This document shows, one piece after another, positions 2,803 to 21,284 of a stretch of 23,650 nt of DNA. Made by a program: the position numbers and the translations under genes. Source of the stretch: Promethearchaeota archaeon. GTDB taxonomy: Archaea; Asgardarchaeota; Hermodarchaeia; Hermodarchaeales; Hermodarchaeaceae. Numbering within the stretch: position 1 is the first letter of the stretch; every line of letters begins with the position of its first letter. The stretch is taken from the NCBI GenBank assembly GCA_048939245.1, contig JBHLPR010000033.1, forward strand, positions 1-23,650. Reading direction: 5' to 3'. The notes beneath the pieces are model-generated. The model did no database searches and was not told the DNA's origin. It worked only from the letters and a program-made list of their open reading frames with translations.

Positions 2803-5800
2803 TTATTCGTCTTTTGAGTCATCAACGCGAAAATCCTTTTTACTTTTCACGACTTTTCCTTCTGCGGTGTCCTTGGTTTTTTTCTCCCGGAAGGTCTGTA
2901 AAACCTTTTGGCGTTCTTCCTCGGTGAGCTCCTTCAATTCTTCGAGCAACTTTTGACGTTCTTCTTCAGTTATTGCCGGTAATTCATCTGGTCGGAGTGT
3001 CTCATCTTCTGAGATAACTTGGGGTTTTTCAGCAATAGCTAGAGTGCTAAAAATTTCTCCCCATTCTTCTTTAGGCAGGGCGCGTAGTTGTTGTGCGATG
3101 CGCTCTTTTTCAAACGTGCTCAATTGTGGAAATTGCTTCAATCGGTCTTGTATTTCCTGTTCTAGCTCTGGAGACAGTGTAGGTTCTTTGATTTTTCGGG
3201 CAAATCGGGTGCCGTCGGCCATTTGTTGTTTTAAGTCTTCGATGAACCACACGCGTTCTGTGGCTGGAATGCGTTTCATTTCTTCGAATAATTCGAGCTT
3301 CTGTTCGTGTTCGAGGTGTGGTAATTGCTTTAATTCTGCCCAGATGGCTTCATCCTCAGCAAATCGTTCTTCATAATCAATAACAGCTGGAAGGCCTGTA
3401 GTAGGAATTGGTATCTGAATGGTCTCATAGGCTGGTTGGACAATGTGACTCATTAGTTCAGGTCGAGAGCCAATACGGTCGATATCCCCTTTTGAGAGTT
3501 TAGGCGTTTTGCCTTTATCGATGGTTCGACCCATTTTCCGCATTTTCCGGACTAGCCAAGGAATGGCAAGGACTCGCGTATAAGCGAGCCACAGGAATAT
3601 CACGATAATTCCAATTACTGCGGCTATAAGCCCAATTTGGAGTGTTTGCTGAACAATTTGACTTAAGGTGACCGCGACTACGATGTCTTCAGTTGAAGAA
3701 CTATATTGTAAACCACCAAGGGCCGCAATTTCAATATGGAGTGTATGAGGTGACAAAAGTGCCGGAACCATAAACGAATAGGACCCATCTCCATGATCGA
3801 ACATATACTGTCTATCAATACCGAGTTCAGGAATGGTTACCGTGAGATTGCCACCAATAACTGGTAAATTGTGATAGGTATCATTGTAAAAGACTACTAA
3901 GGTCCAGGCAGTGCCTGTATCAACGGTGCGAACTTCGGTGATAACTTGAATTTCCGTTGGTACCCGAATGACAAACAAGTCATAGGCGGGGCTTTGTCCA
4001 TTTTCGTAGTTTTGTAAAGTCATTGTGACTTGAAGAGAGTAGGAGCCTGGAGCAGCCTGCGACAGGTCCAAAGTGGCCACATAGAGACCGTTCTCATATT
4101 CGAGGACGCCTATTCCATAATCCCAAGTGTATGAGCCTGATGCAGCCACTATTGTAGTGTTTGTTGCGTCGGTGAAGTTAAAGTATAATGTGAGAAGTTC
4201 ACCACGAGGAACAGTCCAAGTAATTCCTGTCAGATTTGACACAATATCTTCTGGGGCATAATAGGTTTGAATTAATACTAGGTCAAGGGTTGTTGGTTGC
4301 GGACGAATGAAAACTTCAACAGAGGCTATGGCAAAATCATATCCTTCGAAATCAACAGTGAGAGTGACTTGCCAGTTACCAGTGGGATAAATTGTGGAGG
4401 GTAATGATGTGGTGTACCATCCAGGTGTTCCCATTGGCTGCAATAACCCTGCTGAAGTGCCCCAGAAATATGTAACATTTGCACCATCAATGTGGAGATT
4501 ATGATGTGTATCATTGAAGTATACTTGTAGCGTGAAATTTGCTCCATAATATACTTCCTGGACAGTAGGAAAGGCTTGGAGTTCTGTGGGAATTAAAATT
4601 AGTGTAACGCTGATGGTCGTTATGCGTTCGATGACATTCTGCCCTCCCGCGGTGACATAGATGATATATTGCCCTTTTGTTAAGCCGGCGCTATTTAGCG
4701 TAGCATTATAGATGTTGCTGCCGACAAAGACGAGGTCCCCCGTCCTGCTAGTTGCCCAAAGATATGTGACATTGGCGTCTGCAATGCCTGTGCCATAGAT
4801 TGTTGTGAAGTTAACCGATATTTCAAAGTTTTCGCCCACAACGATTTGAATATTTGAGGTTATTGGACTAAGAATTGTATCAGTGGGCAGTATATTGAGC
4901 ATGATAAAGCCTGTGCCAATTTGGTAGCCAGTCTTGTTTGCTTGAATTGTTACCACATAGGCACCTGTGTCCGCAGCGGCCCCGAATGAGACGTTGTATA
5001 CTCCAGCTCCGATAAATGCCATAGTTCCATCTCCGCCTAGCCAGTGGTATGAAGTTGTTGAGTCGTTGATTAAACGTCCATAAAGATCCGTGACTCGCGC
5101 AGTGATTACTACTAATTCAGTCGAGTTATATTCCGTTGTAACTGGAGAAGAGGAAATGACTTCGACAAATAAAGGAATGGGAATCAACGTTAGAGAGACT
5201 ATTACCGTTCGTTGTGCAAAGTGGTCTCGCCAGATCGTAATGTTAATCGCGTGTGTTCCAACAGCTCGACAAGAGGTGTTAAGAATTAAAGCGTAGGTTC
5301 CATTTCCATAGTAGATAATAGTGTAATAGCTTACATTCCAATCGGTGGCAACATCTGCAAAGGGTACCTGCCCTCCATGATCCACATCATAGTAGTCGAG
5401 GCGAATTGTGATATTGAAGCTTAAGGGATGATTGGGAACATAATCTGGATCCGCTTCAAGCGTTGTCTGGATTTTTCGTATAACGAAGTTTTCAATTATC
5501 GTAAATTCCTGATAGTGACTCTTTTGGGCACTTATTGTGACTGTATAACTTCCTTCTGAGCGGCTTATTGTCTGGATTGTAAGTACGTAGGCTTGTAATG
5601 TAGAATTGTAGAAATAGCTCCAATAGAAGTCGTTCCAATCGCAGTCAATAACCGCTCCAGAAATTGGGGACCCACCATCATCGAGGTTAGAATAAGTGAA
5701 GACAATAATTAGGTTATCACCCCAGGGAACAGTCGTCCCCGGATCAAGCGATTGCCGCTGAAGCACAGTGAGATTATCTCGAACTTGGAAGGACACAAAC

Positions 5801-8800
5801 ACTTCCGAATCATCATAATGGGTTTTCGCTAATGTAACAATGAGCGTAAACGGTTGCATTCCCGTTCCTATTCGTGTGGTATTAAGAATCAGAGTATAGG
5901 ATCCATCGGGATTAAATACCAGCCAGTAATCGACACCCAAAATATCATTTGACGAGTTGAAGAAACCATTAGTTGAAACAAACGATAAGTCGGCACCATA
6001 AATCGGAATGGTACTGTGATCGGTGTCATTGTAGGATAAGGTGATGGTTACATTTTGGCCCCAAGGGATAGAGACTGTGTCAGCCAGACCAAATCCTGTA
6101 GTTTGTATTGGACGTAACGTGATTTCGAAATATTTGGATTGACTAGTGTAATTTGTGCGACTGAACAAGATTGTTACATAGTAGGTGGTTTCAGTAATAT
6201 TTCCCCAGAATGTAATGGTATATGTTCCATCTAAATTATTATAGATGGAATAGTTACCGTTAGGATAACCTCCAATAGATTGAGTCGCATCTGTTATGGG
6301 GATAGGGCTTCCTGAAACAATATCATTAAACGTAAGAGTTACTGTGAAATCATCATCATAAGGCAGATCAACTAGTGATCCCGGATAGTCCTTTGTGAGC
6401 TCTGTGTTTCGCGCTTCTACAATCAGTCGTATCTGGATTGATTGGGACGCGCAGTTGGGGGAGCTTGCATTCAATAACAGATCAGTGATTCCGAGTCCGA
6501 TATCAGTGGTATCCAGAGTATAGGTATAACATCCATTTGAGAGCTCATTTAAGGCGGTTTTCGATGTTCCGATGACGAGATGTGCTGTTGCGCCCGTAAT
6601 TCCTGTGTCGTTTTCTGCGAAGTGATAAAATACTGTGATATTGAAATCTTCGTTCCAATAAAGGCGTGCTTCGTAAGCATCGGTATTATTGTTATACTGG
6701 GTCCATCCATCACCTGCTGGTGGAGATGAAATTGCTGTTCGAACCGCATCCAAGTCTGTAGCGGTTTGAACAATCCGGATGATGATGGTGAAGTTTTGTT
6801 GCTGATAGTCCCAAGCGGCGTTCTCAATTCGCATGGTGACTTCATATTTTACCTGTGTTACCCCAGAATATTGAGAATCAACCTTTTCGAATATGATTGG
6901 GCTAGAAGCATTAGGAGTAAAACGCCCCTCAGTAATATAAGTCCAGTCGGATCCGGACCAATGATAGCGAGTAAAGTTTACTCGCACATTTTCATTCCAT
7001 ACGCCTGTATCATTACGAACATAGGCTTGTTCGTATAAATCGTAGAATTTGACTTGGCTGATATAGCCTTCATCACTGGTGGTTTCTGCCGTATATTCAT
7101 CGGGACCTGTTTGTTGGGAGGGGTGAATCATCGTGTAGCTTAGATCATTGACTAGATTGATGGTATAAGTGAGCTGCGTTCCCGTCACGTTTACATAGCC
7201 ATAGTAGAATAATTCGACATAGAATTCTGCAGCCCGATCAGGACTCATCAAATTTGTGCCAAAGTCTAACTCGTATGCCCCTTGTCCGTTTGCAGTCATA
7301 TTCACGTATCGGGTTTGCAGATTACGATCAATATATCGAATTCGAGCGGACGCGTCAGAAATGTAAGCTCCAGTATCATTATTTGCCCAGGTTACATTTA
7401 CAAAAACATTGTCCCCCCAGAGAACACGGGCACCTGGATCCGGATCGATTTTTTCGGTAGCCGTTTCAATGGCAATAGTGAAGTATTGGGCACGCATACC
7501 ACATTGTGTATCGTTATCAAAGGATACAGAAATTTGCCAATTGCTGCCCGCATTATCTGCATCAATTTGGTTGATTTGCCAAGCTGAGCTAACAATTGTA
7601 TTTTCAAGAGAATCAATAGTTGGTGAGGAATCACTATTCCAAAGCGTTCCGTTGGGATAAAATATCGATACATCCGCGGTATTATCTGAGGGACCAATGG
7701 GTCGTAATGTGGCAAGAACTCTGAGCCAGTCATCCTTTACATAATATTCACTTGAGGATACGTTAGTCCAAGGACCAGATCCGGTGCTGCTCTTTTGCGG
7801 ATATATTTCTAAGACGTAATTTAGACTAGAAGCAACAATACGGAATTTGTCACCTACAGAGGCTAGGTCTTCGTCTAACTTGAAGAAGTGGCTGGTTGCG
7901 TTATAGGAATATTGAGTTGTAGGAATAACATCATCAGTACTATTTCTAACTTCAACGAGATTCCATGTTGATCGTAAGTACAAGCCATAGCTATACCCGG
8001 CATATCCATCGGGAGGACGCCCGACAGGAATGGTGTAGTTTATATTCCAAGAAGGAGTTTCATCGGCAACCGTTGAGAAATCGGTTAAAGCGGCATTGGG
8101 ATTTTCACTTTTAATGTACATAGAGTATTCAAAGTCAAAACTAATATCCGCATAGGAAGAAGAAGTGAATTCAAACGATTCATCTGAATCCCAGCAAGTT
8201 GCTAATGAAGCTTGTTCCTTTAAGCTTGGGTCAGCATAAACATTGACTTCGCCTGCATTTCCAATAGTATCGGAGACAGCCGTTCCGTTGAGTGATAGCC
8301 CTACTTCACTGGGCTTACTATCAGTGCCAATGATGTATTGAAAATTATCAAAGTAAATATGTCCTTTCGTATTAGCATTGCCTCCCCCCTGTTTTTGGAT
8401 GGTGATGCGAATCATGACAGTTCCATTGACAGCTGCTGTTGGAAAACTGAGGGAATCCCATGATGTTGGACTATAAAGATCAGTAGTATTTGTCCAGCTT
8501 CCAACTTCTGATGCTTGATATCTGACCGAGACTTTGACATGGAGCCATCCCGCCTTGGAGATATCTTCTGAAAAACGAATATCAAAATATAATCTGAGAC
8601 TATCTGGGGTGATTGATGAAGTGTAAGAAAAGTCGTTATCTATCCACGCGTAGGCAGTGTTGGGAACAGTGCCATATTTGAGTTCGGCGTCAAGACAATA
8701 ACCAGGATTGCCACCGGTCATATTATCGATGGATTTGACTAATCCGCCTGTGGAGTCTGTTAAGGTCCAATTATTATCCGGTTCATCATATTGGTCAAAA

Positions 8801-9120
8801 TCGCCATTAGGAACAGGATCTTCGGTTCGGCGAAGGTTAGAAACTAAGCTCTGTAGGTGATAGCCGCGATAGATGGTAGGGGTTTGGGGAAACCAGGTGC
8901 TTAGGTACGAGAAGGTGGTTCCATTTATTCCATTAGAAAAAAGGGCACTATCGTTTCGAGCAAATTCTGTAACATCGAGGGAATCACCTAAGCCTTCATA
9001 TGGAGAATTAGGAGGTGCCGCAGCCATCACCACATTATCAAGATTCATCTCAAGAGGAGATGAGAAAATAATGACCGCCATGAAAAGAATCAACGTTAAG
9101 GAACCGATTTTTTTATCCAT
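2803..9120 (-). CDS. Gene B: 2105-aa single-pass surface glycoprotein (signal peptide, CBM-like head, ~12 Ig-like stalk repeats, TM helix, cytoplasmic domain with 3 helical repeats)
   Basis: Long ORF. Hydrophobic N-terminus, TM IGLIAAVIGIIVIFLWLAY (~3580-3636), charged helical tail, many N-x-S/T sequons. SD GGTG at 9128-9131, 7 nt before ATG. Ends in tandem TAA TAA. Confidence 0.95.
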   Translation of the reverse strand: MDKKIGSLTLILFMAVIIFSSPLEMNLDNVVMAAAPPNSPYEGLGDSLDVTEFARNDSALFSNGINGTTFSYLSTWFPQTPTIYRGYHLQSLVSNLRRTEDPVPNGDFDQYDEPDNNWTLTDSTGGLVKSIDNMTGGNPGYCLDAELKYGTVPNTAYAWIDNDFSYTSSITPDSLRLYFDIRFSEDISKAGWLHVKVSVRYQASEVGSWTNTTDLYSPTSWDSLSFPTAAVNGTVMIRITIQKQGGGNANTKGHIYFDNFQYIIGTDSKPSEVGLSLNGTAVSDTIGNAGEVNVYADPSLKEQASLATCWDSDESFEFTSSSYADISFDFEYSMYIKSENPNAALTDFSTVADETPSWNINYTIPVGRPPDGYAGYSYGLYLRSTWNLVEVRNSTDDVIPTTQYSYNATSHFFKLDEDLASVGDKFRIVASSLNYVLEIYPQKSSTGSGPWTNVSSSEYYVKDDWLRVLATLRPIGPSDNTADVSIFYPNGTLWNSDSSPTIDSLENTIVSSAWQINQIDADNAGSNWQISVSFDNDTQCGMRAQYFTIAIETATEKIDPDPGARVLWGDNVFVNVTWANNDTGAYISDASARIRYIDRNLQTRYVNMTANGQGAYELDFGTNLMSPDRAAEFYVELFYYGYVNVTGTQLTYTINLVNDLSYTMIHPSQQTGPDEYTAETTSDEGYISQVKFYDLYEQAYVRNDTGVWNENVRVNFTRYHWSGSDWTYITEGRFTPNASSPIIFEKVDSQYSGVTQVKYEVTMRIENAAWDYQQQNFTIIIRIVQTATDLDAVRTAISSPPAGDGWTQYNNNTDAYEARLYWNEDFNITVFYHFAENDTGITGATAHLVIGTSKTALNELSNGCYTYTLDTTDIGLGITDLLLNASSPNCASQSIQIRLIVEARNTELTKDYPGSLVDLPYDDDFTVTLTFNDIVSGSPIPITDATQSIGGYPNGNYSIYNNLDGTYTITFWGNITETTYYVTILFSRTNYTSQSKYFEITLRPIQTTGFGLADTVSIPWGQNVTITLSYNDTDHSTIPIYGADLSFVSTNGFFNSSNDILGVDYWLVFNPDGSYTLILNTTRIGTGMQPFTLIVTLAKTHYDDSEVFVSFQVRDNLTVLQRQSLDPGTTVPWGDNLIIVFTYSNLDDGGSPISGAVIDCDWNDFYWSYFYNSTLQAYVLTIQTISRSEGSYTVTISAQKSHYQEFTIIENFVIRKIQTTLEADPDYVPNHPLSFNITIRLDYYDVDHGGQVPFADVATDWNVSYYTIIYYGNGTYALILNTSCRAVGTHAINITIWRDHFAQRTVIVSLTLIPIPLFVEVISSSPVTTEYNSTELVVITARVTDLYGRLINDSTTSYHWLGGDGTMAFIGAGVYNVSFGAAADTGAYVVTIQANKTGYQIGTGFIMLNILPTDTILSPITSNIQIVVGENFEISVNFTTIYGTGIADANVTYLWATSRTGDLVFVGSNIYNATLNSAGLTKGQYIIYVTAGGQNVIERITTISVTLILIPTELQAFPTVQEVYYGANFTLQVYFNDTHHNLHIDGANVTYFWGTSAGLLQPMGTPGWYTTSLPSTIYPTGNWQVTLTVDFEGYDFAIASVEVFIRPQPTTLDLVLIQTYYAPEDIVSNLTGITWTVPRGELLTLYFNFTDATNTTIVAASGSYTWDYGIGVLEYENGLYVATLDLSQAAPGSYSLQVTMTLQNYENGQSPAYDLFVIRVPTEIQVITEVRTVDTGTAWTLVVFYNDTYHNLPVIGGNLTVTIPELGIDRQYMFDHGDGSYSFMVPALLSPHTLHIEIAALGGLQYSSSTEDIVVAVTLSQIVQQTLQIGLIAAVIGIIVIFLWLAYTRVLAIPWLVRKMRKMGRTIDKGKTPKLSKGDIDRIGSRPELMSHIVQPAYETIQIPIPTTGLPAVIDYEERFAEDEAIWAELKQLPHLEHEQKLELFEEMKRIPATERVWFIEDLKQQMADGTRFARKIKEPTLSPELEQEIQDRLKQFPQLSTFEKERIAQQLRALPKEEWGEIFSTLAIAEKPQVISEDETLRPDELPAITEEERQKLLEELKELTEEERQKVLQTFREKKTKDTAEGKVVKSKKDFRVDDSKDE

Positions 9121-9290: not shown

Positions 9291-12200
9291 TTAGTCATGC
9301 TTTCGTTCGGTTTCCTCAAGCGCGCGAATGACTTCTTCTTGTTCTTCTTTAGAGAGCCCACGAAGTTGTTCGACAACCGCGTCTTTTTCTTGGGGTCCGA
9401 GGGCTTCAAGCGATTGGAGCCTGGCATGGATACCAGGATCGACCCCTTCAGGAACAGGTTCGGGTTCGGCGGGGAGACGTCCGAAGCGGGTGCCGTCGGC
9501 CATTTGGGATTTGAGGTCTTCGAGGAACCAGATTCGATCCTTGGCGGGGATGCGCTTCATCTCTTCGAAGAGTTCGAGTTTTTGGTCGTGGCCCAGACCT
9601 TCGAGTTTTTCGAGTTCGTTCCAGATGATTTCGTCTTCGGCTTCCCGTTCTTCAACGGTGATAGCCACAGGGAGAACGGTAGCGCCAATGGGGATGCCGA
9701 TAGCTCCATACGCGGGTTCGATAATAGTTTCCATGGATTCCGGTCGAGAGGCAATGCGATTGACATCGCGGTTGGACAGATGTGGTGTCTTGCCTTTGCC
9801 GAGGGTGTCAGACATTTTGCGCATCTTTCGGACCAGCCAAGGAATAGCGAAGACTCGGGTATAGGCGAGCCAGGCAATGAGGATAATGATGCCGATTATG
9901 GCAGCGATTAAGCCATAGCGGAGAGTGGCCTGGACGATAGGGTGAAGGGCGACAGAAACATTAGTTTGGTGGGTAGCAATAGAATAGATTAAACCGGTTT
10001 CCGCTCGAAATTCCATAATATAGGTTAATTCCGCAGGAAAGACAACAGAGGGTAAGGTATAGGTGCCATCACCATTATCAGTGAGTATTAGTCCTTCATC
10101 GTCCGTTATACCAGGGATAAATACAGTTACTGTGGAACCAGGAATTGAGACATTATGATCTAGGTCCCATAAGGTGAGCGTTAGGGTCATCACCGTTCCA
10201 GTATACCAGTTAGTATTGATAGGAAGTCCTCGAATTTCGGTTCGCACTAAGGTAACAGTAACTGGGAGTTGGAGGATTTGTGCTGTTTCATAGTTTTGTC
10301 TGGTAAGCGTGATGTCGAGATAATAGTTAGCTGGCGATATTTCCGTCATATTCAGCAACGCTACATAGAGGCCGTCTTCGAAGGTTAGTGTGCCACTTCC
10401 ATAAAACCAGGTAAAGGCGCCGATTGCATCTGCGATGGTATTATTTGCGTAATCGGTGAAATTGAAATGAAGATACAAGACGTCGCTGCGTGGCACGGTC
10501 CAAGGCTGGGAAATGTTCAACCAGGTTTCCATACCTGTTGAGGGGTTAATCATCAATGCGCTTATTAGTTCGAGTTGTGTGGGTCGTTGTTCAATGTAAA
10601 TGGTGGCAGAGTTTACCACGAATTGAAAACTGGGTTCATTGGCTGCAAAGGTTGCGGTGTAAACTGAACCTGCAGAAAAGGCAGTGCTTGGTAAGGTGAT
10701 TGTGTACCATCCTGCAGTTCCATTGGCTAGTAGATTTCCTGAATACGGGCCCCAGAAGTATTCGACGGTTGCTCCGGTGATTGGAGTATCGTTAAACAAG
10801 TTGCGGAAATAGATATTGATGGTGAAGTTAAGACCCCAATACACTACGTATGTGGTGGTTTCTGGTTCAAGAGCTGCAGGGATTAGGGTTAGAATCAAAC
10901 TAATGGCTCGAGATTGGGAGTCAACGTTTGGCGAAGATGCAGTTATGTAAAGGGTATACGATCCTGCAATTAGACCCATTGTATCGATTGTACCGTTATA
11001 GATGCCTGGAGCCACTTCAACGTAGGTGCCGTAGAGTGAACCTACATAATAGGTGACGTTGGCAAGTTGTACGGGGTCACCAAAAATGGTGGTATAGTTG
11101 ACCGGAATTGCAAAAGATTCGCCCACAATATAGGAGAGGCTATATTGTCCACTTGGGACTGTGTCGAGGATACTGCCGATTTGTTTGATATGGATCAGGA
11201 TTCGATGGACTGATGGGATGACATTAGGTCCCTCGACGTAAGCTGTGAGATAATGTATTCCGATGTTTCCTTTAGAGGAATTGAATACAAGCCCATAGAG
11301 TCCATTAATGCCTGAGGCGTTAAAGTCAGTTCCTCCGGTCCATGAAAACGTGACATTCGCGTCATTGAAATTTTCATAGAGGAAGTTTTGGACATGAATT
11401 TCGACCCAGAAATCTTCTCCATAGGTGACGTTAACTGGTTCGCTTACCGTCGTTGTGATAATAAGAGTCATTGGTGTGACAAAGATGGGTATGCGGATTT
11501 GTTGACGTTGATAACGCTCCCGGTAGAGGGTTACATTCATCATGTAATTTCCTATGGAGCCTGGACCAGTACTGTTCAGCTCGATGTAGTACCAGCCATC
11601 AGTTCCTTCACTTATCGTATAGAATCCTGTGGTCCAGTTGCAGACCACTGTGGCCCCGATTACGCCGCCTCCAATTTTCTGCGTGTAGTGAATGGCGACG
11701 GTGGTATTTCCTCGCCAGGGCACTTCAACCCCGCCTACTTGGGGTGACTCAACATCGGTTTCGGAAACGATGTCGATGAGAATGAAACAGTGTGCATCGT
11801 CATAGAATCCTTTGCTCGCATTGACACGGATCCAAAACTGTCCGACAGTTCCAGGATCTTGGGCGTTGATTTCTGCTTCGTAGTAGCCAGTTCCTGAGAC
11901 GTAGTGAAAATTGATGGTTCCTGTGGTCCAGTTGCCTTCAACGGTGGCAGGAGGCTCGAGCCAGGAATTGCTATCAGAGTCCTCATATCGGACTTTGGGG
12001 AATAGGGGTTGATTTTCTAAGAAGGCTTCAATGAGTGGTTCGCGGGGGGTGAGAGAAGTCGAATGCTCCATAGTATAAGAGAGGAGGAATTCCCCGGCTT
12101 CCGTTGAATTATCCCAAATGACTGAAATCTGATAGGTGCCACCGGTAGTATTCCAGCCATCATTGAAAAAGCTTGTAGAGTAGACCCAGCCTGTGGCTAT

Positions 12201-13847
12201 CGGATTGACTAATTCAGTGAAGTAGATGCCTCCACCTGGGTGATAGATTGTAATATTGGCTTGGGTTGATGTTATTCCCTGAGGTGGATTATTTAAGCTA
12301 TCTAAGATTCGGGCAAGAACCCGTGTTGTATTCCCTGCGCGTATCGCGGAGGTTGGAGTCCACCCTCCATCAAAGATTTGTAACTGTGCTGAATCGACGT
12401 AGTTATGCGATTCGGCTTCAATATACCAATACCCATCAGGACTATTCGTGATATTAGTTGCGGGAATGCTGAGATAGCCATCACCCAATCCTCCTCCGTC
12501 GCATAAGTGGACTGTGTTTATTGTTGGGAGTTGAGGTTCGGATACATATGTGACATTCCAATCGGTTGGAATTGTGAAGTTAAAGTGATCATTCCAGTAG
12601 AGAGTCGGCATGGCGAGTTGATAATACATCTTCCAGACAGTGTTTTGCCCGCCTGATGCGATAAATTGGGTACCGGAAGTGAAGGGATCTTGCGCATAAA
12701 GTGTTGTGCTAAATTTTTGTGAATAGAGATTGGTGTCAACCGTTAGGGTTACATCAATGTCCATGTCTGGATTTGGTGGAAAGGGCGTCGGGGTCCAATT
12801 TAGCTGCGCGATCACAGGTGAGGTTGTCCAAGGGTTGGATAGTTGATCCTCGGTTACATGTCCTACACCAAAGGTGTCGTCGACAACATTTAATCCATTC
12901 ATTTGAAGATTAATGTCAGAAGGACGAACAAGGACTTTGATGTAAACAATTACATTATCAAAACGTGCACGCGGTTGAGGATCCGGCGAAAAGCGAGTAC
13001 TGCTATCGCCTGTATAGCGAAGACCGACTTGAACATTAAGACCATCGCTGAGATTGATAATACCAGGAGAGAAGGGGTGAAGGCCAGTATTGGTCCATGT
13101 AGCCTCAGCAACCTGAACATTATCAAATCCGATGGAGTAAACATAACTGCCATCTACCCTTGCATACACTTGGAATGGCAGACCAAGCCCCCATACCGAA
13201 TCTGTTTGTACCCAATAATCAAAGCTTATTGATGCAGAAAGGACCTGCCCTCTTGGTGGAATGGCGATTGTTTGATTCCAGCGAGCATAGTCTTGTGGAT
13301 CATAAGAATACCAACCGCCCCCCCGATCATTACCATCAATAAAGCATTCGACAGCAGGATTTCCTGTTCCGTGACCAGTAGCGCGATAATAATTTGTAAT
13401 AGTATTGGTCCAGGAGCCGGCATCATATGTGAGATTCGTCCAATATTGGGCTGTATTGTCAAAGGTTGGATTTAGAATCCAGCTACGATTTTCTGCAATT
13501 TGGTAAACGTAGGTGTAAAGCGTGTATCCTTCCCATCCGGGAGGAAGAACAGCCTGGACGGTATCGTTGTAGCGAATACTCGATGAACTATCATAAATGA
13601 GATGAAGATTCTGCCCCGCATCTGTCCGGTTAGCATATTCGGCTACATTTCGAGTAGTGCCAATACCAGAATAATCAGGATTTGGAGTATCTGGTTCTCC
13701 ATTTGGGAGCCAGGGTGAAGCAGCAGAAGAAGCAGCGTTCCCATTTGGAGAGAGAGAGGGATCTAATCCCTGTGTTGGTAGGGGTTGAAGAATAAGAGGA
13801 ATTAGAAAGAGAAAAATCACGAAAATGGCAACTGGTCGAATTTTCAT
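9291..13847 (-). CDS. Gene C: ~1518-aa single-pass surface glycoprotein (~7 Ig-like stalk repeats, 2 cytoplasmic helical repeats)
   Basis: The ORF track starts at 13862. ATG 13847 (MKIRPVAIFVIFLFLIPLILQP) is preferred because GGAG lies at 13857-13860 and promoter spacing then matches the paralogs. TM YGLIAAIIGIIILIAWLAY ~9861-9917. Confidence 0.93.
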   Translation of the reverse strand: MKIRPVAIFVIFLFLIPLILQPLPTQGLDPSLSPNGNAASSAASPWLPNGEPDTPNPDYSGIGTTRNVAEYANRTDAGQNLHLIYDSSSSIRYNDTVQAVLPPGWEGYTLYTYVYQIAENRSWILNPTFDNTAQYWTNLTYDAGSWTNTITNYYRATGHGTGNPAVECFIDGNDRGGGWYSYDPQDYARWNQTIAIPPRGQVLSASISFDYWVQTDSVWGLGLPFQVYARVDGSYVYSIGFDNVQVAEATWTNTGLHPFSPGIINLSDGLNVQVGLRYTGDSSTRFSPDPQPRARFDNVIVYIKVLVRPSDINLQMNGLNVVDDTFGVGHVTEDQLSNPWTTSPVIAQLNWTPTPFPPNPDMDIDVTLTVDTNLYSQKFSTTLYAQDPFTSGTQFIASGGQNTVWKMYYQLAMPTLYWNDHFNFTIPTDWNVTYVSEPQLPTINTVHLCDGGGLGDGYLSIPATNITNSPDGYWYIEAESHNYVDSAQLQIFDGGWTPTSAIRAGNTTRVLARILDSLNNPPQGITSTQANITIYHPGGGIYFTELVNPIATGWVYSTSFFNDGWNTTGGTYQISVIWDNSTEAGEFLLSYTMEHSTSLTPREPLIEAFLENQPLFPKVRYEDSDSNSWLEPPATVEGNWTTGTINFHYVSGTGYYEAEINAQDPGTVGQFWIRVNASKGFYDDAHCFILIDIVSETDVESPQVGGVEVPWRGNTTVAIHYTQKIGGGVIGATVVCNWTTGFYTISEGTDGWYYIELNSTGPGSIGNYMMNVTLYRERYQRQQIRIPIFVTPMTLIITTTVSEPVNVTYGEDFWVEIHVQNFLYENFNDANVTFSWTGGTDFNASGINGLYGLVFNSSKGNIGIHYLTAYVEGPNVIPSVHRILIHIKQIGSILDTVPSGQYSLSYIVGESFAIPVNYTTIFGDPVQLANVTYYVGSLYGTYVEVAPGIYNGTIDTMGLIAGSYTLYITASSPNVDSQSRAISLILTLIPAALEPETTTYVVYWGLNFTINIYFRNLFNDTPITGATVEYFWGPYSGNLLANGTAGWYTITLPSTAFSAGSVYTATFAANEPSFQFVVNSATIYIEQRPTQLELISALMINPSTGMETWLNISQPWTVPRSDVLYLHFNFTDYANNTIADAIGAFTWFYGSGTLTFEDGLYVALLNMTEISPANYYLDITLTRQNYETAQILQLPVTVTLVRTEIRGLPINTNWYTGTVMTLTLTLWDLDHNVSIPGSTVTVFIPGITDDEGLILTDNGDGTYTLPSVVFPAELTYIMEFRAETGLIYSIATHQTNVSVALHPIVQATLRYGLIAAIIGIIILIAWLAYTRVFAIPWLVRKMRKMSDTLGKGKTPHLSNRDVNRIASRPESMETIIEPAYGAIGIPIGATVLPVAITVEEREAEDEIIWNELEKLEGLGHDQKLELFEEMKRIPAKDRIWFLEDLKSQMADGTRFGRLPAEPEPVPEGVDPGIHARLQSLEALGPQEKDAVVEQLRGLSKEEQEEVIRALEETERKHD
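9481..9650. repeat. Near-identical direct repeat, copy 1 (cytoplasmic-domain core of gene C)
   Basis: 7 mismatches in 170 nt versus 14501-14670, including a 62-nt exact run at 9583-9644. Confidence 0.9.
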
Positions 13848-13927
13848 TGAATAACGCTCCATACAAGTTCAATGCATGCAAAGAAGACTACGCTGGTGTA
13901 GCCAGATAGTTAGACACATAATAGGAA

Positions 13928-14310: not shown

Positions 14311-17300
14311 TTATTCGGTTTGCCGCGTGGTCTCTTCAAGTGCTTTGATGACTTCCTCTTGTTCCTCCTTTGAGAGCCCGCGAAGTTGTTCCACAACCGC
14401 TTCTTTCTCTTCAGACCCTAAGGCCGCAAGTGATTGAAGTCGAGCATGGACTGTGGGATCGACACCTTCGGGGACCGGTGTAGGTTCAGCTGGAAGGCGC
14501 CCGAAGCGGGTGCCGTCGGCCATTTGGGATTTGAGATCTTCGAGGAACCAAATCCGGTCCTTGGCGGGGATCCGCTTCATCTCTTCGAAGAGTTCGAGTT
14601 TCTGGTCGTGGCCCAGACCTTCGAGTTTTTCGAGTTCGTTCCAGATGATTTCGTCTTCGGCTTCTCGTTCTTCGATGGTAATGGCGGCTGGTAGAACAGT
14701 GGCGCCAACAGCGATTCCGATGGCACTATAGGAAGGCTCGATAAGGGTTTCCATAGATTCGGGTCGAGTGGAGATGCGGTTTATATCTCGGTTGGAGAGG
14801 TGAGGGGTTTTTCCTTTACCGAGGGTGGTTGACATCTTGTGCATCTTCCGGACTAGCCAGGGTATAGCGAAGACCCGGGTATAAGCAAGCCAGGCGATGA
14901 GTATGATTATGCCGATTATCGCTGCTAGCAAACCGATTCGGAGTGCTTGTTGGACGATGGGATGCAAAGTGACTTGGATATTGATTTGGTGTGTGGCAAC
15001 TGAATATTTTATTCCCGTTTCAGCGGTGAATTGGGCGACCATAGTCGTTTCGCGTGGGAACGCAATTCCTGATAAGGCGTAGGTGCCATTTCCAAGATTG
15101 AGGAGCTCAATACCTGATTCTGATGTGATATCTGGGATGTAGGCGGTAATAACAGCATCAGAGATTGTGATGTTATGATCCAAGTCCCATAACGTACAAA
15201 CGAAGGAGTAGGCACTTCCCGTATTGACCTGAAGATTGGTTGGTAAACCCCGAAGTTCGGTGCGTACTAAGGTGACTGTAACGGGTAGTTGAGTAATTTG
15301 AGCGGTTTCGTAGTTTTGACGGGTAAGAGTGACGTCAATGAAGTATAGACCGGGTGATGTCTCGTTCATGTTAATCTGCGCGTAATACAAACCAGCATTG
15401 TATGTGAGGACTCCGCTTGCATAAAGCCAATTAAAGGAACCAGTGGCATCTGGGATTGGGTTTCCATTGCTATCAGTGAAATTGAAGTAAAGGAATAGTA
15501 TGTCACTGCGGGGAACGGTCCAGCCTGTGAGATTCAACGTGGTATACATGTTAAGGGGTTCATAATACATTCCAGCCGCACTTAATTCTAATGTTGTCGT
15601 CTGCGGAATTATATTCACTGTTATAACACAGATGGCAAATTCATATGTAGGTACATCAGATGCACAGGTTACCTCATATATGGCTCCCGCGGCGAAAATG
15701 GTAGTAGGAAGGGTGATAGTATACCAGCCAGGGGTACCAGTTTCTTGCATTGAACCGATCATGGTTCCCCAGAAGAAGGTAATATTAGCACCAGTGATAG
15801 GGCTGTTGTGGAAGGTATCGTTGAAGTAGACATCAATGGTGAAGTTTGTGCCCCAATACTCATTGATGAGTGAATCTGTGGGTGATAAGTCGGTAGGAAT
15901 GACCTCTAAGAATACATTCACTACATCGAATCGTTCAACGGCGTTAGGTGTACTGGCAGTAACATAAAGACTAAACTGACCTAATCCCAAGCCTAGACTG
16001 TCAATAGTCGCGTTGTAGATACCCTGTCCAATATGGATAAGTGAGCCATTGCCACCTGCCCAAGTATAGAGGAGGGTAGCGCTAATTATTGGGCTGCCAT
16101 CAACAGTGCTGAAATTCGCTGAAACTTCAAAACTTGAGCCTACAATTGTAACAATAGTAGGAGTGAGTAGGGTTAAAATTGTGTCAGTAGGAAGAATGTA
16201 TAGAGTAACCGAACCGATACCAGTCTGACAATTTGTTTTAACGGCTTCAATTGAAACTAACCATGTTCCTACGTCCTGATTCGCCGTAAATGAGGCATTA
16301 TAGATGCCGTTACCCAGGAAGGTCATTGGTGCATCAGGAAATCCTCCCCAATGATAGGTGACTGTTGAATCGTTGATACGTCGTCCATAGATATCGAGGA
16401 TTCGAACCGTGACAACGACATCTCCTGCAAACTCGGTTGTCCAAGGAGATGTGGAAAGTATGGAAACATAGAGTGGTAGTGGATTAATGGTAAATTGAAC
16501 TATCGTTGATCGCGTTTCATAGAAGTTACTAGCGAATTCGAGAGTGAAGTTGGCTAATCCAACAACTTCGTTTTCGGTTGGTACTTGAATTTGATAGGTG
16601 CCGTTTGGAAAGACTTGTAGAACTGACCAACCGGTCCAGCTAATCCAGGTGGTTACTGTTGTATTAGTGGGATCTGAGAGCACTAAACTGTGATCGACAT
16701 CCATGTAGGTGGCATAGAGGATGAGCGTGTCACCCCAATAGAGTTGCCCAAAGATCTCCCAAGTGAGGGTTGTGTGGATTGCACGTACATAACCACTCAT
16801 TAGAACTGAATGAGATTGATAGTAGGGAGCAATGTTGGATGGCCAGGTGACATTTACTAGAAAAGTGAACTGGCCCAATTCAGGAAAGTTGTTTGTATCG
16901 ATGAGTAACAAGTAGCCGTTAAAGCCATTGTTAATCATTTGCACATTATACACGAGGGTGATTGCGGGATGGCTTGTGCAGATGGCATTGATTTGAACGT
17001 AACCAGTGGTATTATCGATGGCAGTGTATGGGGCTTCGGTCATATTGTATTGAATAATAAAGATTAGGTCATCGCCAAAGGGTTGAGGTTCAGGGGGTGT
17101 ATAAAGTACCGTAGTTTTTGTACCAACGACATAGACACGGACATTTGCAGAGGCATTCCCATAGAATGGTATGAACCCAGCGTCCCACGTGGCATTAATC
17201 ACGAATTCGTGAAAGACGTTGACCGTTCCAAAAGCACTGGTATCAATCGAGACTCGGTAGGTATCATCAACTAAAGCTGTAACATAATAGAATATCGGAT

Positions 17301-20300
17301 TGAGTGGGGTTCCATCCGTGGCATTATATACTAAAATTCCGACATGGGCTCCAAAGGTATCGTTTGCGATATTTCCATGTCCGGATAAATCATAGTAGAC
17401 GAGGGTAACATTGAAAGTCGCACCATAATCAGTTGTGGGAATGTATGTAGGAGATAAACTAGACAGTCGTGAAGTTACAACCATATTTGCGATAAGGTAG
17501 CGCTCTTGATAGGTGGGGGGTGAAGTAGGCCAATCAACGGTAATGTTGAGTTGCCAAACGCCCAAGTCACTAACAGCTGATGTGTTGATGACTATCCAGT
17601 AGACTCCAGCAACCGGTTCTGAAATTGAGTAATGACTACTAGGAATGACCCACCCGACCCCGGAAACGTAGATGGGAGCTCCAGTGATAGGATTACCATC
17701 CTGTGAGCTGCTCGCATCTGACACAATGTAATGAACAACTATTGTGACATTGATACCCCATGGAGTAGGATCAAAAGCATCCGTTGATAGTGCGGTATAC
17801 ACTGTTCGTACGATAAAATTAACTGAGGAAAGGGTTGCAGGAGCGTAATGACCTGTGGTTACTTCTTCTAGTGCAATTGAAATTGTGTAGGTTTGGATTG
17901 ATGTGAGTGCAGATGCAAAGATAGTGATGCGATAGGAACCTCCACCGAGTGGAGTATAGGTGTAATCACTTGGGTTGAGGGGCCATGGTCCTATGGCTTG
18001 AACGACGATGTAAATACTGGGATCATTAATGCCTTCACTATTGTGTGAGCTTTCATCATCAAAGACAAGATAATCGACAATGATGATTACATTATCGCCA
18101 TAAGGCGTGGATTCGGGGGGTGTATAATCGAGACGGGTTCTAAGTTGTCGAACAGTGAAGGTTATGGAACGGAATGCACTCGCATATAGGTCATCTGCAG
18201 GATTGGGTTGTAGTGGATAGCTCGCGGCTATACCTAAGACATATTTTGCAATGGTCCCGAGTTCAGATTTGTAGATGGTTATGAGGTATTGACCAGCAAC
18301 GACTTCTGTGTAGGTGAAGTCGACCCCCAATACTAGAGGAGTACCGTTTAACGTGACGGTGAGTGAAGCACCACTTATTGGGTCACCATTATGTAATGTG
18401 CTTTGAGTGTCATCGATATGATAATAGATAGTGACGTTAGCATCTTCGTCCCAAGGAATAGGCTGAAGTGCATCATAATTAATTGAGCTTGAATATTGTC
18501 GAATGGACACAATTAGCGAAAGTGAACGGTTTGCATGGTACGGTTCACCAAACCAGCGTAGTCGAATTTCGAAATTATAGTTACCTACACCTGGAAGGTA
18601 AGCCGTGTTTACAAGGATGTTATAGGTTCCGCCTCCGAGGTCTTGAATCCAGAAGTAGTCCATTCCCGAAGGCCATTTGATGGTTCCATTCCATACTTCG
18701 AAGTGGAGTTGTCCCGTTATATTGAGAATGGGGGCACCTCCCGCGTCGAGGTCCAAACATAGAACTTCAATTGTCGAGTTTTCCTCGAATGGAACAGCAT
18801 TAGGTGGGGTATAAGTGAATTGGGTATTTCGTGCCTGGACGGTGACCATGAGATAGAATTGTTGGCGTTGGAACCGTTCTTTGCTGATTGTGATATTTAA
18901 TGCATAGGTTCCGAGAGGGAGTGCTGTACTATTGAGTTCAATAGAGTACCAGCCATTTCCGTCCTCCCAAATAGTGTAATAGCCGGCTGTCCAGTTGGCT
19001 AAGACATCGACATAGGGGATGCAGCCATTAATGCCAGCACCATCAGTTTTCCGCATGTAGTGAACTTGGATTGTTGCGTTTTCTAGCCAGGAAACGCTGA
19101 CTGAGGGAGATTGCGGACTGTATACAGTCGTTTCAGATGAGATATCGACGACAATATAGGTGAATGCAGCATCATAATAGGATTTACTTGCGTCAACCCG
19201 AATTGTGTAACGCCCAACGTCAGGTACATCCAAAGCGTTAATTTCAGCTTCGTAATATCCGGTGCCTGAAATCCAATTGAAGGTTATTGTGCCAGTCGTC
19301 CAATTCCCTTCAACAGTAGCAGGTGGAGATAACCAAACGTCTTTGTCCGTATCATTATATCGAACCTTAGGATACAAAGGTTGATCTTCAAAGAAAGCGT
19401 AAATGGTAGATTCTCGGGCTACTAGAGTTGTGGCATGGGTTACACTGTACGTGCTTTCGAGTTCTCCAGCTTCGGTTGAATTATCCCAGAAGACAACGAT
19501 TTTATAAAGCCCTCCAATTGTCGTTGCACCATCAATGGTGAACTGAGTGGAGGTAACCCAACCAGCCGCATCTGGAGCCACGAGTTCAGTGTACCAGATT
19601 GTTGATCCGTCAGGATTGTATATAGATACATTGGCTTGTGTGGTTGTAACACCACTTGGCGGATTATTCGAACCATCTAAAATTCTTGCTCGAACACGTG
19701 ACGTATTTCCTGACCGAACCGCAGCAATATTTTGCCACGTCCCATCAAGAATTTGGAGAACAACCGAGTCAACATAGTTATGCGATTCAGCTAGAATCGT
19801 CCAGTACCCATCAGGACTGTTCGTAATGGTTGTTGCAGGAATACTGAGATAACCATCACCTGGATCACCACCTTGACATTGAGCTACCTTATTTACAGTG
19901 GGTAGCTGGGGTTCTGAAACAAAAGTGATGTCCCAATCAGTAGGTATTGTGAAATTGTAGACATCATTCCAATATTGGGTTGGGAGTGCAAGCAGATGGT
20001 ACAAGGTCCATTCAGTGTTTGATCCACTTTCCGCATCAAATTGTATTCCTATTGCTGTCGGGCTCTGGGAATACAGAGTCTGAGCAGTTTTATTAGCATA
20101 CAAATTCACATCACAAAGGGCAGTAACCATAATTTCTAAGTCAGGGTTTGGAGGTGTTGGAGTGGGCGTCCAATTTAATTGGGCAATAACTGGTGAGGTT
20201 GTCCAGACAGCTGTAGGCACCTGAGTTATAGAACCACTACCGCGTGATGCATCATTTTGAACAACTAATCCATTCATTTCAAGATTTATCTCAGAAGGAT

Positions 20301-21201
20301 AAACGCGAGTATCAAGGTAAAGTTCGATGTTGTCAAAGTTCCCTTGCATCCAATTGTTTGAACTATACCCAACACTCATTGTTGAAATAATACCGACTTC
20401 AACTTCAATGGCATCCGATGGAATATTGAAAAGACCTGCATCAATTTCAATAAAGCCGGTATTATGCCAATTAGTATCACCAACTGCTTGAAAACCTGTG
20501 GCCCACACTTGCGTTCCATTAATGCGAATGTATACATTAAATAGCGCATTAGATCCCCAGGCACTGTTAACATAGTAATCCATCTTAATCGCAGCCCAGG
20601 CAATGTTGCTTCGGTTCACAGTGTAGGTTTGGGTCCACCAGGTTCGATCATTATTATCATAGCGATAGTAAGATCCGTCCCAGCGACCATCTTCTTGGAC
20701 GCGGACAAAGCCATTTCCATCAGTTCCACCAGACTGCCAAGATTGACTGAAGGTGTTGGATCCACCGAGGTCAACATAACCGCTAGTCCAGCTATTCGAA
20801 TTTCCATCGAAACTTGGGTTAATGACCCAGCAACGATTTTCATAAAGGTTGTAAATGGAATAATCAAGCTTGTAACCGGTCCAACCTGGAGGTAATACAA
20901 CGCTAGCAGAGTCATTATAGGGAGTTTGGGTGGAGCTGTTATAATACATGAAAATTGGCTGATTTCCATCTGTACGATTTGCAGTTTCATGAACCAGACG
21001 CGCTGCACCGACACCGGAATAATCTGGACTGGGAAGTGGAGGACTTGAGGGGTAAATAGGAGAGGGGGTCGAGTCAATCGAATTCGAGAAAGGGGTCGTA
21101 TCTTGGGAAAAAGCAGGCGTTGGTGTTCCCCAAATCGGATACATAACGAATGGGACGATTAATAAGAAAAATATCAAAAAATGAAAGGATAGTGACTTCA
21201 T
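14311..21201 (-). CDS. Gene D: ~2296-aa single-pass surface glycoprotein; same head type as C, ~14 Ig-like stalk repeats
   Basis: The ORF track starts at TTG 21246. ATG 21201 (MKSLSFHFLIFFLLIVPF) has GGAGG at 21209-21213, 7 nt upstream, and gives a normal signal peptide. TM IGLLAAIIGIIILIAWLAY ~14881-14937. Confidence 0.93.
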   Translation of the reverse strand: MKSLSFHFLIFFLLIVPFVMYPIWGTPTPAFSQDTTPFSNSIDSTPSPIYPSSPPLPSPDYSGVGAARLVHETANRTDGNQPIFMYYNSSTQTPYNDSASVVLPPGWTGYKLDYSIYNLYENRCWVINPSFDGNSNSWTSGYVDLGGSNTFSQSWQSGGTDGNGFVRVQEDGRWDGSYYRYDNNDRTWWTQTYTVNRSNIAWAAIKMDYYVNSAWGSNALFNVYIRINGTQVWATGFQAVGDTNWHNTGFIEIDAGLFNIPSDAIEVEVGIISTMSVGYSSNNWMQGNFDNIELYLDTRVYPSEINLEMNGLVVQNDASRGSGSITQVPTAVWTTSPVIAQLNWTPTPTPPNPDLEIMVTALCDVNLYANKTAQTLYSQSPTAIGIQFDAESGSNTEWTLYHLLALPTQYWNDVYNFTIPTDWDITFVSEPQLPTVNKVAQCQGGDPGDGYLSIPATTITNSPDGYWTILAESHNYVDSVVLQILDGTWQNIAAVRSGNTSRVRARILDGSNNPPSGVTTTQANVSIYNPDGSTIWYTELVAPDAAGWVTSTQFTIDGATTIGGLYKIVVFWDNSTEAGELESTYSVTHATTLVARESTIYAFFEDQPLYPKVRYNDTDKDVWLSPPATVEGNWTTGTITFNWISGTGYYEAEINALDVPDVGRYTIRVDASKSYYDAAFTYIVVDISSETTVYSPQSPSVSVSWLENATIQVHYMRKTDGAGINGCIPYVDVLANWTAGYYTIWEDGNGWYSIELNSTALPLGTYALNITISKERFQRQQFYLMVTVQARNTQFTYTPPNAVPFEENSTIEVLCLDLDAGGAPILNITGQLHFEVWNGTIKWPSGMDYFWIQDLGGGTYNILVNTAYLPGVGNYNFEIRLRWFGEPYHANRSLSLIVSIRQYSSSINYDALQPIPWDEDANVTIYYHIDDTQSTLHNGDPISGASLTVTLNGTPLVLGVDFTYTEVVAGQYLITIYKSELGTIAKYVLGIAASYPLQPNPADDLYASAFRSITFTVRQLRTRLDYTPPESTPYGDNVIIIVDYLVFDDESSHNSEGINDPSIYIVVQAIGPWPLNPSDYTYTPLGGGSYRITIFASALTSIQTYTISIALEEVTTGHYAPATLSSVNFIVRTVYTALSTDAFDPTPWGINVTIVVHYIVSDASSSQDGNPITGAPIYVSGVGWVIPSSHYSISEPVAGVYWIVINTSAVSDLGVWQLNITVDWPTSPPTYQERYLIANMVVTSRLSSLSPTYIPTTDYGATFNVTLVYYDLSGHGNIANDTFGAHVGILVYNATDGTPLNPIFYYVTALVDDTYRVSIDTSAFGTVNVFHEFVINATWDAGFIPFYGNASANVRVYVVGTKTTVLYTPPEPQPFGDDLIFIIQYNMTEAPYTAIDNTTGYVQINAICTSHPAITLVYNVQMINNGFNGYLLLIDTNNFPELGQFTFLVNVTWPSNIAPYYQSHSVLMSGYVRAIHTTLTWEIFGQLYWGDTLILYATYMDVDHSLVLSDPTNTTVTTWISWTGWSVLQVFPNGTYQIQVPTENEVVGLANFTLEFASNFYETRSTIVQFTINPLPLYVSILSTSPWTTEFAGDVVVTVRILDIYGRRINDSTVTYHWGGFPDAPMTFLGNGIYNASFTANQDVGTWLVSIEAVKTNCQTGIGSVTLYILPTDTILTLLTPTIVTIVGSSFEVSANFSTVDGSPIISATLLYTWAGGNGSLIHIGQGIYNATIDSLGLGLGQFSLYVTASTPNAVERFDVVNVFLEVIPTDLSPTDSLINEYWGTNFTIDVYFNDTFHNSPITGANITFFWGTMIGSMQETGTPGWYTITLPTTIFAAGAIYEVTCASDVPTYEFAICVITVNIIPQTTTLELSAAGMYYEPLNMYTTLNLTGWTVPRSDILFLYFNFTDSNGNPIPDATGSFNWLYASGVLTYNAGLYYAQINMNETSPGLYFIDVTLTRQNYETAQITQLPVTVTLVRTELRGLPTNLQVNTGSAYSFVCTLWDLDHNITISDAVITAYIPDITSESGIELLNLGNGTYALSGIAFPRETTMVAQFTAETGIKYSVATHQINIQVTLHPIVQQALRIGLLAAIIGIIILIAWLAYTRVFAIPWLVRKMHKMSTTLGKGKTPHLSNRDINRISTRPESMETLIEPSYSAIGIAVGATVLPAAITIEEREAEDEIIWNELEKLEGLGHDQKLELFEEMKRIPAKDRIWFLEDLKSQMADGTRFGRLPAEPTPVPEGVDPTVHARLQSLAALGSEEKEAVVEQLRGLSKEEQEEVIKALEETTRQTE
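14501..14670. repeat. Near-identical direct repeat, copy 2 (cytoplasmic-domain core of gene D)
   Basis: Offset 5020 nt from copy 1; all differences are synonymous. Confidence 0.9.
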
Positions 21202-21284
21202 AGTGATGCCTCCACTATTTTGATGGTTTATGCTAGCGATATCCAAAGCTGGAGTAGCACTATATCTAGCTCACAGGGCGGGGA

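Follow-up and report, generated by a model that had tools for sequence, protein, structure and literature searches.

A conserved, duplicated tail module at the C-termini of giant, probably surface-exposed proteins of Asgard archaea

Contig JBHLPR010000033.1 of a Promethearchaeota archaeon was analysed over its whole length of 23,650 nucleotides (the window, which is the entire contig C15). It belongs to the 2.5-Mb, 88%-complete genome of an uncultured member of the Hermodarchaeota. Translation of its open reading frames (ORFs) gives five giant genes, A to E, all co-oriented on the minus strand. In the four C-termini visible in the window (B, C, D and E), the same tail is found: behind a transmembrane (TM) helix come a juxtamembrane helix of basic character, a middle segment, a near-invariant unit (unit 1) and degenerate copies of that unit. 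The current work favours, with a probability of roughly 0.55, the view that these tails are non-catalytic docking modules tying varied ectodomains to one or more common cytoplasmic partners. Whether paralogues or species are compared, no part of the protein is as constrained as unit 1, which bears out the near-invariance proposed for it in a first-pass annotation of the gene B tail.

Genes B (2803-9120, 2,105 residues), C (9291-13862, 1,523 residues) and D (14311-21246, 2,311 residues) are complete, while gene A (1-2436) has lost its 3' end and gene E (21413-23650) its 5' end at the contig edges. The complete giants run from a signal-peptide-like hydrophobic N-terminus through a long, sequon-rich ectodomain to a lone hydrophobic helix near the C-terminus and then the tail; 185-261 residues lie between the TM helix and the C-terminus. 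Ectodomain sequons (N-x-S/T) number 54, 36, 50 and 17, a total of 157 in 5,779 residues or about 27 per 1,000, and the four tails contain 0 in 817 residues. A basic stretch (+5) stands directly after the TM helix and the units are acidic, with net charges of -8 and -5. Because the sequons are confined to the ectodomains and a basic cluster follows the TM helix, the tail is placed in the cytoplasm, in agreement with the first-pass annotation; the signal-peptide-like N-termini point to the same topology. The giants are probably N-glycosylated single-pass surface proteins.

The segment 2803-3579 singled out by that annotation extends from the stop codon of gene B up to four codons before the motif AIPW. 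The conserved module actually begins about 25 codons upstream of this segment's start, at the TM helix (3568-3642, minus strand, as are all features below), which the alignment identifies as the true module start and which carries GLIAAVIG and the exit motif YTRV. The small-xxx-small pattern GLIAAxIG is invariant across the four visible C-termini. It is followed by the basic amphipathic juxtamembrane helix AIPWLVRKMRKM...KGKTP (3496-3567; net charge +5), for which the motif of the four tails is AIPWLVRKM(R/H)KM..T..(K/R)GK.P.LS; its predicted local distance difference test score (pLDDT) is 91-94. The middle segment (3370-3495; pLDDT 69-81) consists of two short predicted helices (26-32 and 35-50) and then a hydrophobic Pro-rich stretch. 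Unit 1 (3202-3369), from ERFAEDEAIWAEL... to ...ADGTRF, is a predicted three-helix bundle with helices at 65-80, 87-99 and 102-118. In the block W.EL..L..L...QKLELFEEMKRIPA..R.WF.EDLK.QMADGTRF, the quoted positions are invariant in all four tails, and the tail motifs quoted in the first-pass annotation were reproduced letter for letter by the alignment. A flexible linker (3160-3201; pLDDT <50) leads to unit 2 (3019-3159), also a predicted three-helix bundle (helices 133-143, 151-163 and 166-178), which the hidden Markov model (HMM) of the unit matches with an independent E-value (i-E) of 5e-16. Unit 3 (2878-3015) is truncated to two helices (201-212 and 216-233) and has no helix 1. The Lys-rich and then acidic end, including the stop codon (2803-2877; pLDDT 41-44), is predicted to be disordered and is retained in the orthologues of B.

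Nonsynonymous (dN) and synonymous (dS) divergence show where the tail has been held constant. Between unit 1 of B and its orthologues in five species, dN is 0.035-0.084 and dS is 0.65-1.8 in four species and saturated in the fifth; the resulting dN/dS is 0.03-0.08, and that of the last ~970 ectodomain residues is ~0.10. Among the paralogues in the window, identity is 70-100% in unit 1, 56-88% in the TM helix, 39-84% in unit 2 and 22-43% in the ectodomain, and synonymous sites are saturated between B and each of C, D and E. The unit 1 copies of C and D (9483-9650 and 14503-14670) encode an identical protein at a dS of 0.27, whereas dS exceeds 1.5 in the adjoining segments (TM helix, juxtamembrane helix and unit 2). 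This looks like a short, recent gene-conversion tract limited to unit 1. Homogenisation is weaker between C/D and E, with a unit 1 dS of 0.66-0.74. Gene conversion thus happens in this array, but it does not account for the conservation of the tail, because dN/dS is 0.03-0.08 between species and the synonymous sites separating B from its paralogues are saturated. The possibility left standing by the first-pass annotation, that the conservation is purely a gene-conversion artefact, is not compatible with such low ratios at a dS of 0.65-1.8 across species.

Residue numbers such as W107 start at AIPW of the C tail. Across 40 aligned tails, P3 and R7 do not vary, W4 and V6 are at least 90% conserved, and R35 and P60 are nearly invariant. 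Polar positions of helix 3 (R105, D111 and Q115) are conserved, as is R121 just past this helix. By helical periodicity, W107, D111 and Q115 would lie on one face of helix 3 and form a candidate contact face.

The tail contains an internal duplication. Comparison of the unit 1 and unit 2 profiles with hhalign gave a probability of 96.7% (P 4e-10, 41 columns), and when all 26,880 genome ORFs are searched with the HMM of either unit, the other is retrieved, at best with an i-E of 1.7e-4. A set of 26 diverse units, which covers positions 1, 2 and 3 as well as several Asgard lineages, gives an alignment of 47 columns whose only gaps are single residues at the ends (consensus I...LD..P.LS.EEK..L...LK.L..EER......L), and the unit is therefore about 47 residues long. 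The repeat recognised in the first-pass annotation is thus real, but its description as a two-helix element of ~35 residues has to be revised to ~47 residues and three predicted helices; the 34-residue strings given there begin within helix 1.

Copy number varies, as had been noted for these four tails: there are two units in each of C, D and E, and B adds to its two a truncated third and the Lys-rich end. The HMM of units 1 and 2 covers the third unit of B at positions 10-44 only (i-E 0.05). In a collection of 116 proteins that carry the unit, 91 have two copies, 14 have three and 10 have one. The three-unit proteins that were inspected are all of the B/C71 type, unit 3 being confined to B-type and C71-type tails, and the one-unit proteins are mostly fragments, together with the Loki type described below. 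The linker between units 1 and 2 ranges from 14 to ~100 residues among paralogues.

The longest linkers deserve separate mention. In the C28 giants of 2,923 and 4,511 residues (L007:1231-1959:- and L008:1117-1899:-), units 1 and 2 are separated by 70-100 Pro/Lys-rich residues that hold PPP runs, e.g. PPPKLPPPEKVPPPKK. Such linkers bring to mind eukaryotic poly-proline tracts, to which profilin or SH3/WW domains are recruited.

Structure predictions by AlphaFold2 improved from a pLDDT of 66 with 8 sequences to a pLDDT of 78 with 40 tails, for which the predicted template modelling score (pTM) was 0.35. The tail is thus predicted to be folded and not disordered, disorder being the other finding that would have spoken against the first-pass annotation. 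In the model of the C tail, the juxtamembrane helix spans residues 4-17 (pLDDT 91-94), and short helices at 26-32 and 35-50 precede the hydrophobic Pro-rich stretch. Unit 1 is formed by helices 65-80, 87-99 and 102-118, and unit 2, beyond a low-confidence linker (121-137), by helices 138-146, 152-162 and 167-184. The single modules are predicted with confidence, but because the pTM is low, they appear to have no fixed mutual placement.

When PDB was searched by Foldseek with each of the two models, nothing matched at E <=0.001. In a VIA-align run against 48,161 PDB representatives, both units superpose on small up-down-up three-helix bundles. Unit 1 matches the B4 domain of protein A (5cbn) with a Z of 6.4 and a root-mean-square deviation of 2.4 A over 51 residues, and unit 2 matches protein A repeats at Z 4.8-5.3. 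Other matches are Embp, BibA and a streptococcal beta-protein domain, and the X domains of the measles, Sendai, mumps and Hendra P proteins follow at Z 5.0-5.4. Such Z values fall where the tool rates helical bundles as uninformative. The unit is predicted to be a protein A/GA-like three-helix bundle at the level of fold class, and homology is not claimed.

The B/Z domain of protein A, the GA module and the X domain of paramyxovirus P are small up-down-up three-helix bundles that bind proteins; the unit is predicted to share their fold, and the domains of protein A are arranged in tandem on linkers as in the Asgard tail. The helix 1-2 junction of protein A, LPNLNEEQRNAFIQSLK, resembles IPGLSEEEKERLVEQLK of the unit, but the unit profile gives only 7-9 bits per domain. 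The natural protein A domain 4npd scores E 0.87 with the unit profile, in a different register, and a protein A match at 1e-10 is the sum over five identical engineered repeats of 7-8 bits each. In Pfam, GA reached E 0.038 in 2 of the 26 units, and no protein A match was listed. Protein A and GA belong to bacteria and act outside the cell, whereas the tail module is archaeal and lies in the cytoplasm. Convergence on a small and common fold is the probable source of the likeness.

The tail is not peculiar to this contig. The host genome has eight copies, each at the end of a giant ORF (up to 4,511 residues). The module is defined by a C-terminal TM helix, a basic (A/S)(I/V)P(W/K)xVR... segment, unit 1 (L79, F108 and Q115, with R121 after it), at least one further unit and a position at the end of a large sequon-rich protein, and all these features are present in the four window genes and in four others of the genome. 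In other genomes of the Hermod family, the tail is found in 18 of 18, with 1-9 copies each. A HMMER scan of 1.84 billion representative sequences with a profile of the eight tails gave 46 matches at E <=0.001, three of which are false matches of composition; within complete proteins, the matches sit at the C-terminus. The named true matches are all "hypothetical protein" entries of Asgard archaea labelled Hermod-, Thor-, Hel-, Hod-, Loki- or Odinarchaeota, and the Asgard origin considered in the first-pass annotation is borne out. No true match from bacteria, eukaryotes or non-Asgard archaea was seen in the profile scans, and on this evidence the tail module is restricted to Asgard archaea.

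The three matches set aside as compositional are P0041 (a eukaryotic repeat protein), P0042 and P0046. P0042 (975 residues) has an N-terminal TM helix and 13 tandem repeats of ~45 residues, MSPEERAAL...MSAEDAAALLKAL, which the unit HMM matches with i-E down to 2e-12 after iteration; its likeness to the unit is probably a convergent helix-capping composition, not homology.

With a profile of 40 tails, 130 of the 400 genomes searched in the phylum gave matches, and some families gave none (f4, 0 of 31; f19, 0 of 22). About 80 of the matched genomes belong to one family (f6), of which they make up the greater part, with E between 1e-17 and 1e-50 and mostly 1e-34 or better; the f6 matches listed are full length and often lie in ORFs of ~2,580-2,600 residues. 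The f6 family is read as Thorarchaeota because its tails resemble proteins that carry this label. Its tails have the same architecture, with SVPKMVR...KGKIP followed by ...LAEITGL...F..DL..M..SERPGF..EVI.QE and then ...LK..G(L/M)...EIE....QAK.LSKA..EA. In Hel-like and other divergent forms, a longer helical tail precedes the last two units, which are kept.

Curated resources hold nothing that corresponds to the module. Searches of Pfam (whole proteins, tails and single units), NCBIfam and PDB sequence profiles found nothing at family thresholds, and no enzyme family or catalytic motif emerged from the Pfam and NCBIfam scans, in keeping with the first-pass statement that none is visible. The best score for DUF3106 (PF11304) was 18.9 bits (E 0.0021) in the E tail, under the gathering cut-off of 24.3 bits. 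The YqbF HeH motif (PF21488) reached 17.3 bits over 18 residues of the C tail, with a cut-off of 27 bits. For UBA, no Pfam match was listed and none was among the top VIA-align rows, no UBA reference set having been compared. A PGF-CTERM/archaeosortase signal, in which the TM helix lies within the last ~30 residues, was ruled out, since 185-261 residues follow the TM helix here. A full-text literature search found no description of the tail module. The tail represents a new domain family in a new, Asgard setting, covered by no curated family or paper, and it defines a family that current databases have missed.

The basic amphipathic helix is likely to rest against the cytoplasmic side of the membrane, and the full units are predicted to fold independently into small acidic three-helix bundles, strung like beads on flexible linkers. 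In the docking reading, ectodomains that are only 22-43% identical would in this way plug into the same cytoplasmic partner or partners. Several observations weigh against such a role. Gene neighbourhoods yielded no partner, since the loci of the Hermod and Thor types have no conserved neighbour gene in common. Conservation in units 2 and 3 is far below that of unit 1, with identities of 39-43% among B, E and C/D, and these units could be spacers instead of binding modules. The structure of the tail is a prediction, and its fold match is generic: values of Z <8 are common among helical bundles, and a common fold says nothing on function. A more far-reaching form of the docking idea is unlikely, though worth bearing in mind: the juxtamembrane segment and the bundles might recruit eukaryote-like machinery to the giants, as an Asgard link from outside to inside. 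Candidates for recruitment would be small GTPases together with longin/winged-helix adaptors, or else components of the cytoskeleton or of ESCRT, and Lokiarchaeia would have fused an adaptor-like module into the tail beside the unit.

Other roles for the same features have to be weighed. The TM helix is much better conserved than the ectodomain, its invariant GLIAAxIG belongs to a motif type known from helix-helix packing and may mediate such packing here, unit 1 is almost identical among co-located paralogues, and the tandem array is syntenic across species. All this would suit a self-assembly function, in which TM helix and tail cluster the giants as homo- or hetero-oligomers of tandem paralogues and order a surface coat from inside. 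Small three-helix bundles are usually monomeric binding modules, however, and a pTM of 0.35 indicates no defined packing even in one chain, so that this function is doubtful. The tail might instead serve the insertion, topology, retention or quality control of these huge exported proteins, for example as a stop-transfer signal with a folded cytoplasmic stopper or as a handle for a chaperone or the translocon. In favour of this, the strongest conservation outside unit 1 falls on the TM-exit/juxtamembrane motif (P3, R7, W4 and V6), and a similar exit motif is present on Asgard single-pass proteins with quite different tails, which suggests a generic membrane-proximal role for the exit/juxtamembrane part. 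Stop-transfer requires only a few basic residues, and a role in biogenesis would leave unexplained both the two folded modules at a dN/dS of 0.03-0.08 and the retention of unit 1 across Hermod-, Thor-, Hel- and Odin-labelled lineages; it is no less doubtful than self-assembly.

Two further explanations carry far less weight. If the similarity came from gene conversion and helix-capping composition (L-S/P-x-E-E), the tail would be a charged spacer with no specific function. The local conversion is real (the contrast of C-D unit 1 with its flanks and, to a lesser degree, the C/D-E values), and the unit HMM also matches the unrelated LSPEE-type repeat proteins P0042 and P0046. Yet unit 1 of B is 70-74% identical to those of C, D and E despite saturated synonymous sites, the orthologues in other species show the low dN/dS given above, and unlinked paralogues on other contigs as well as other Asgard classes keep the same positions, so that a mere spacer is very improbable and largely refuted. 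Nucleic-acid binding by a helix-hairpin-helix (HhH)-like motif (L..IPGLG...K..L), which would tether DNA or RNA at the membrane, was suggested by unit 1 of the C28 paralogues. This reads ELDKIPGLGPEEKAVLA and resembles the HhH pattern h-x-x-h-x-G-h-G-x-x-x-A-x-x-h. No HhH family appeared in Pfam scans up to E 10 or in scans of single units, the glycines vary (they are replaced by PHLEHE in B and by S, T or D in unit 2), and the units are acidic; the idea is hardly credible and was rejected.

The docking reading has precedents of a general kind, mainly in eukaryotes, where families of single-pass surface proteins are already known whose cytoplasmic tail stays constant and consists of small helical modules for binding. 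The closest receptor-type parallels are integrin beta/talin, cadherin/catenin, the constant domain of clustered protocadherins and the acidic terminal segment of Plasmodium PfEMP1. These eukaryotic proteins resemble the giants in having a signal peptide, a modular ectodomain that is large and glycosylated, a single TM helix and a cytoplasmic tail that is conserved, and here too one acidic, non-catalytic tail is shared across paralogues with widely differing ectodomains. They differ from the giants, whose host is archaeal, and show no sequence or specific fold relationship to their tail, which is built of duplicated three-helix bundles, whereas the eukaryotic tails are short linear motifs or an armadillo-binding peptide. 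Archaeal S-layer-type glycoproteins, including PGF-CTERM/archaeosortase substrates, likewise combine a signal peptide with an ectodomain rich in sequons and with one TM helix at the C-terminal end, next to basic residues. Their TM helix is at the extreme C-terminus with few basic residues after it, unlike the 185-261 residues that follow in the giants.

Cultured Asgard archaea have no ordered S-layer and carry many complex surface proteins instead, which are thought to mediate cell-cell contacts relevant to eukaryogenesis (PMC9834061). The tail module offers a small, soluble and separately expressible bait for intracellular partners of the Asgard cell surface. An outside-to-inside link, if true, would be a prokaryotic counterpart of the coupling between adhesion receptors and adaptors in the closest relatives of eukaryotes.

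A related arrangement was found in Lokiarchaeia. Weak matches in the family f9 led to P0165, a protein of 1,623 residues (L097:1413-6281:-, G215:C5) with a signal peptide, a sequon-rich ectodomain, a TM helix, a module of ~230 residues, one unit (1434-1480) and a Lys-rich, TPR-like end. The ~230-residue module has no match in a Pfam scan and looks, by eye, longin/roadblock-like. The cytoplasmic region of P0165 (439 residues) represents a large conserved family matched by at least 168 clusters; the 120 listed (P0166-P0285) are 56-89% identical over 90-100% of the region, and Lokiarch_08060 (P0198) of Lokiarchaeum GC14_75 is one of them. A unit HMM built without Loki sequences finds its best match at the same place in 120 of the 120 listed members, at 20-29 bits and a median i-E of 8e-4 at genome scale. 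The site lies ~144 residues from the C-terminus in examples, and farther in one longer protein. The single Loki copy is, to judge from these matches, a probable homologue of the tail unit. The Loki family and the Hermod giants are alike as Asgard single-pass giants with a similar TM-exit motif and, at a fixed site, one probable 47-residue unit; the Loki tail differs in that it has only this one unit and no juxtamembrane/middle segment of the Hermod type.

Homologues of the Loki-type ~230-residue module are also encoded in the genome of the window. Two are fused behind the TM helix of smaller surface proteins (G000:C57:8796-9494, L106; G000:C64:7-657, L107). Three are free cytoplasmic proteins, namely L108:1513-2106:+ (197 residues), L109:1249-1911:- (220 residues) and L110:838-1872:- (344 residues), and these are candidate partners of the tail. 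The motif at the TM exit, Y-x-R-x-x-h-h-P-(W/K/R)-x-x-R, is seen again on single-pass proteins of Asgard archaea whose tails are unrelated, including those of L106, L107 and L097; examples are AYTRVFAIPWLVRK, GYRKRYLIPKRR, FYRQQILLPRQR and VYRGVVVPKKRE. This motif may act as a generic signal, either topogenic or facing the lipid.

Stand-alone proteins with the repeat, which the first-pass annotation had envisaged, were found neither among the ORFs of the host genome nor among the database matches; the unit HMM, run over all genome ORFs of at least 40 residues, matches only the eight giants. Apparent cases were set aside. P0047 (208 residues) is the last part of a gene cut by a contig end, with an in-frame ectodomain upstream. 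P0143, P0146 and P0142 (~155 residues) start at an internal Met of E-type tails and are probably artefacts. In orthologues of gene E from two other genomes, L086 (G014:C3:36000-39600, ~2780-2830) and L087 (G007:C28:19000-22600, ~2500-2620), an N run and a G+C-rich stretch break the gene at a common site, directly behind KLSGRDQR or KLS, and gene callers then give the false P0143 and P0146. The interruption is probably an artefact of assembly or masking, both assemblies being from one project.

The remaining tails of the window follow the plan of gene B, all on the minus strand. The C tail (9294-9923; alignment, unit HMM and AlphaFold2) comprises the TM helix (9849-9923), juxtamembrane helix (9777-9848), middle segment (9651-9776), unit 1 (9483-9650), linker (9438-9482) and unit 2 (9297-9437). 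The D tail (14314-14943; alignment and unit HMM) has the same parts at 14869-14943, 14797-14868, 14671-14796, 14503-14670, 14458-14502 and 14317-14457, respectively. In the E tail (21416-22069; alignment and unit HMM), which has a short acidic end, they lie at 21995-22069, 21923-21994, 21797-21922, 21629-21796, 21575-21628 and 21434-21574.

The tandem array is flanked by syntenic metabolic genes in four Hermod species, and the Thor loci have a separate downstream block that is not that of the Hermod loci. In Thor-type giants (L099, L100, L102 and L104; G372, G318, G326 and G335), the block on the tail side (3') is conserved in four genera. By eye, it contains a ~360-residue protein (MVKVAVVKT...), a membrane protein that looks like a UbiA-like prenyltransferase, a PHP-like protein (SAFDLHTHT...) and a membrane protein of ~345 residues; an aminoacyl-tRNA-synthetase-like gene, also named by eye, is next in the three Thor loci that reach that far. 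The block could serve the synthesis of glycans or lipid carriers for surface proteins, or it could be plain synteny.

No Pfam domain was found in the more than 7,000 ectodomain residues of A to E, where the best hits, K319L-like PKD and SGBP_B_XBD, were far under their cut-offs. The ectodomains of a few relatives have Big_1 or Invasin_D3 matches.

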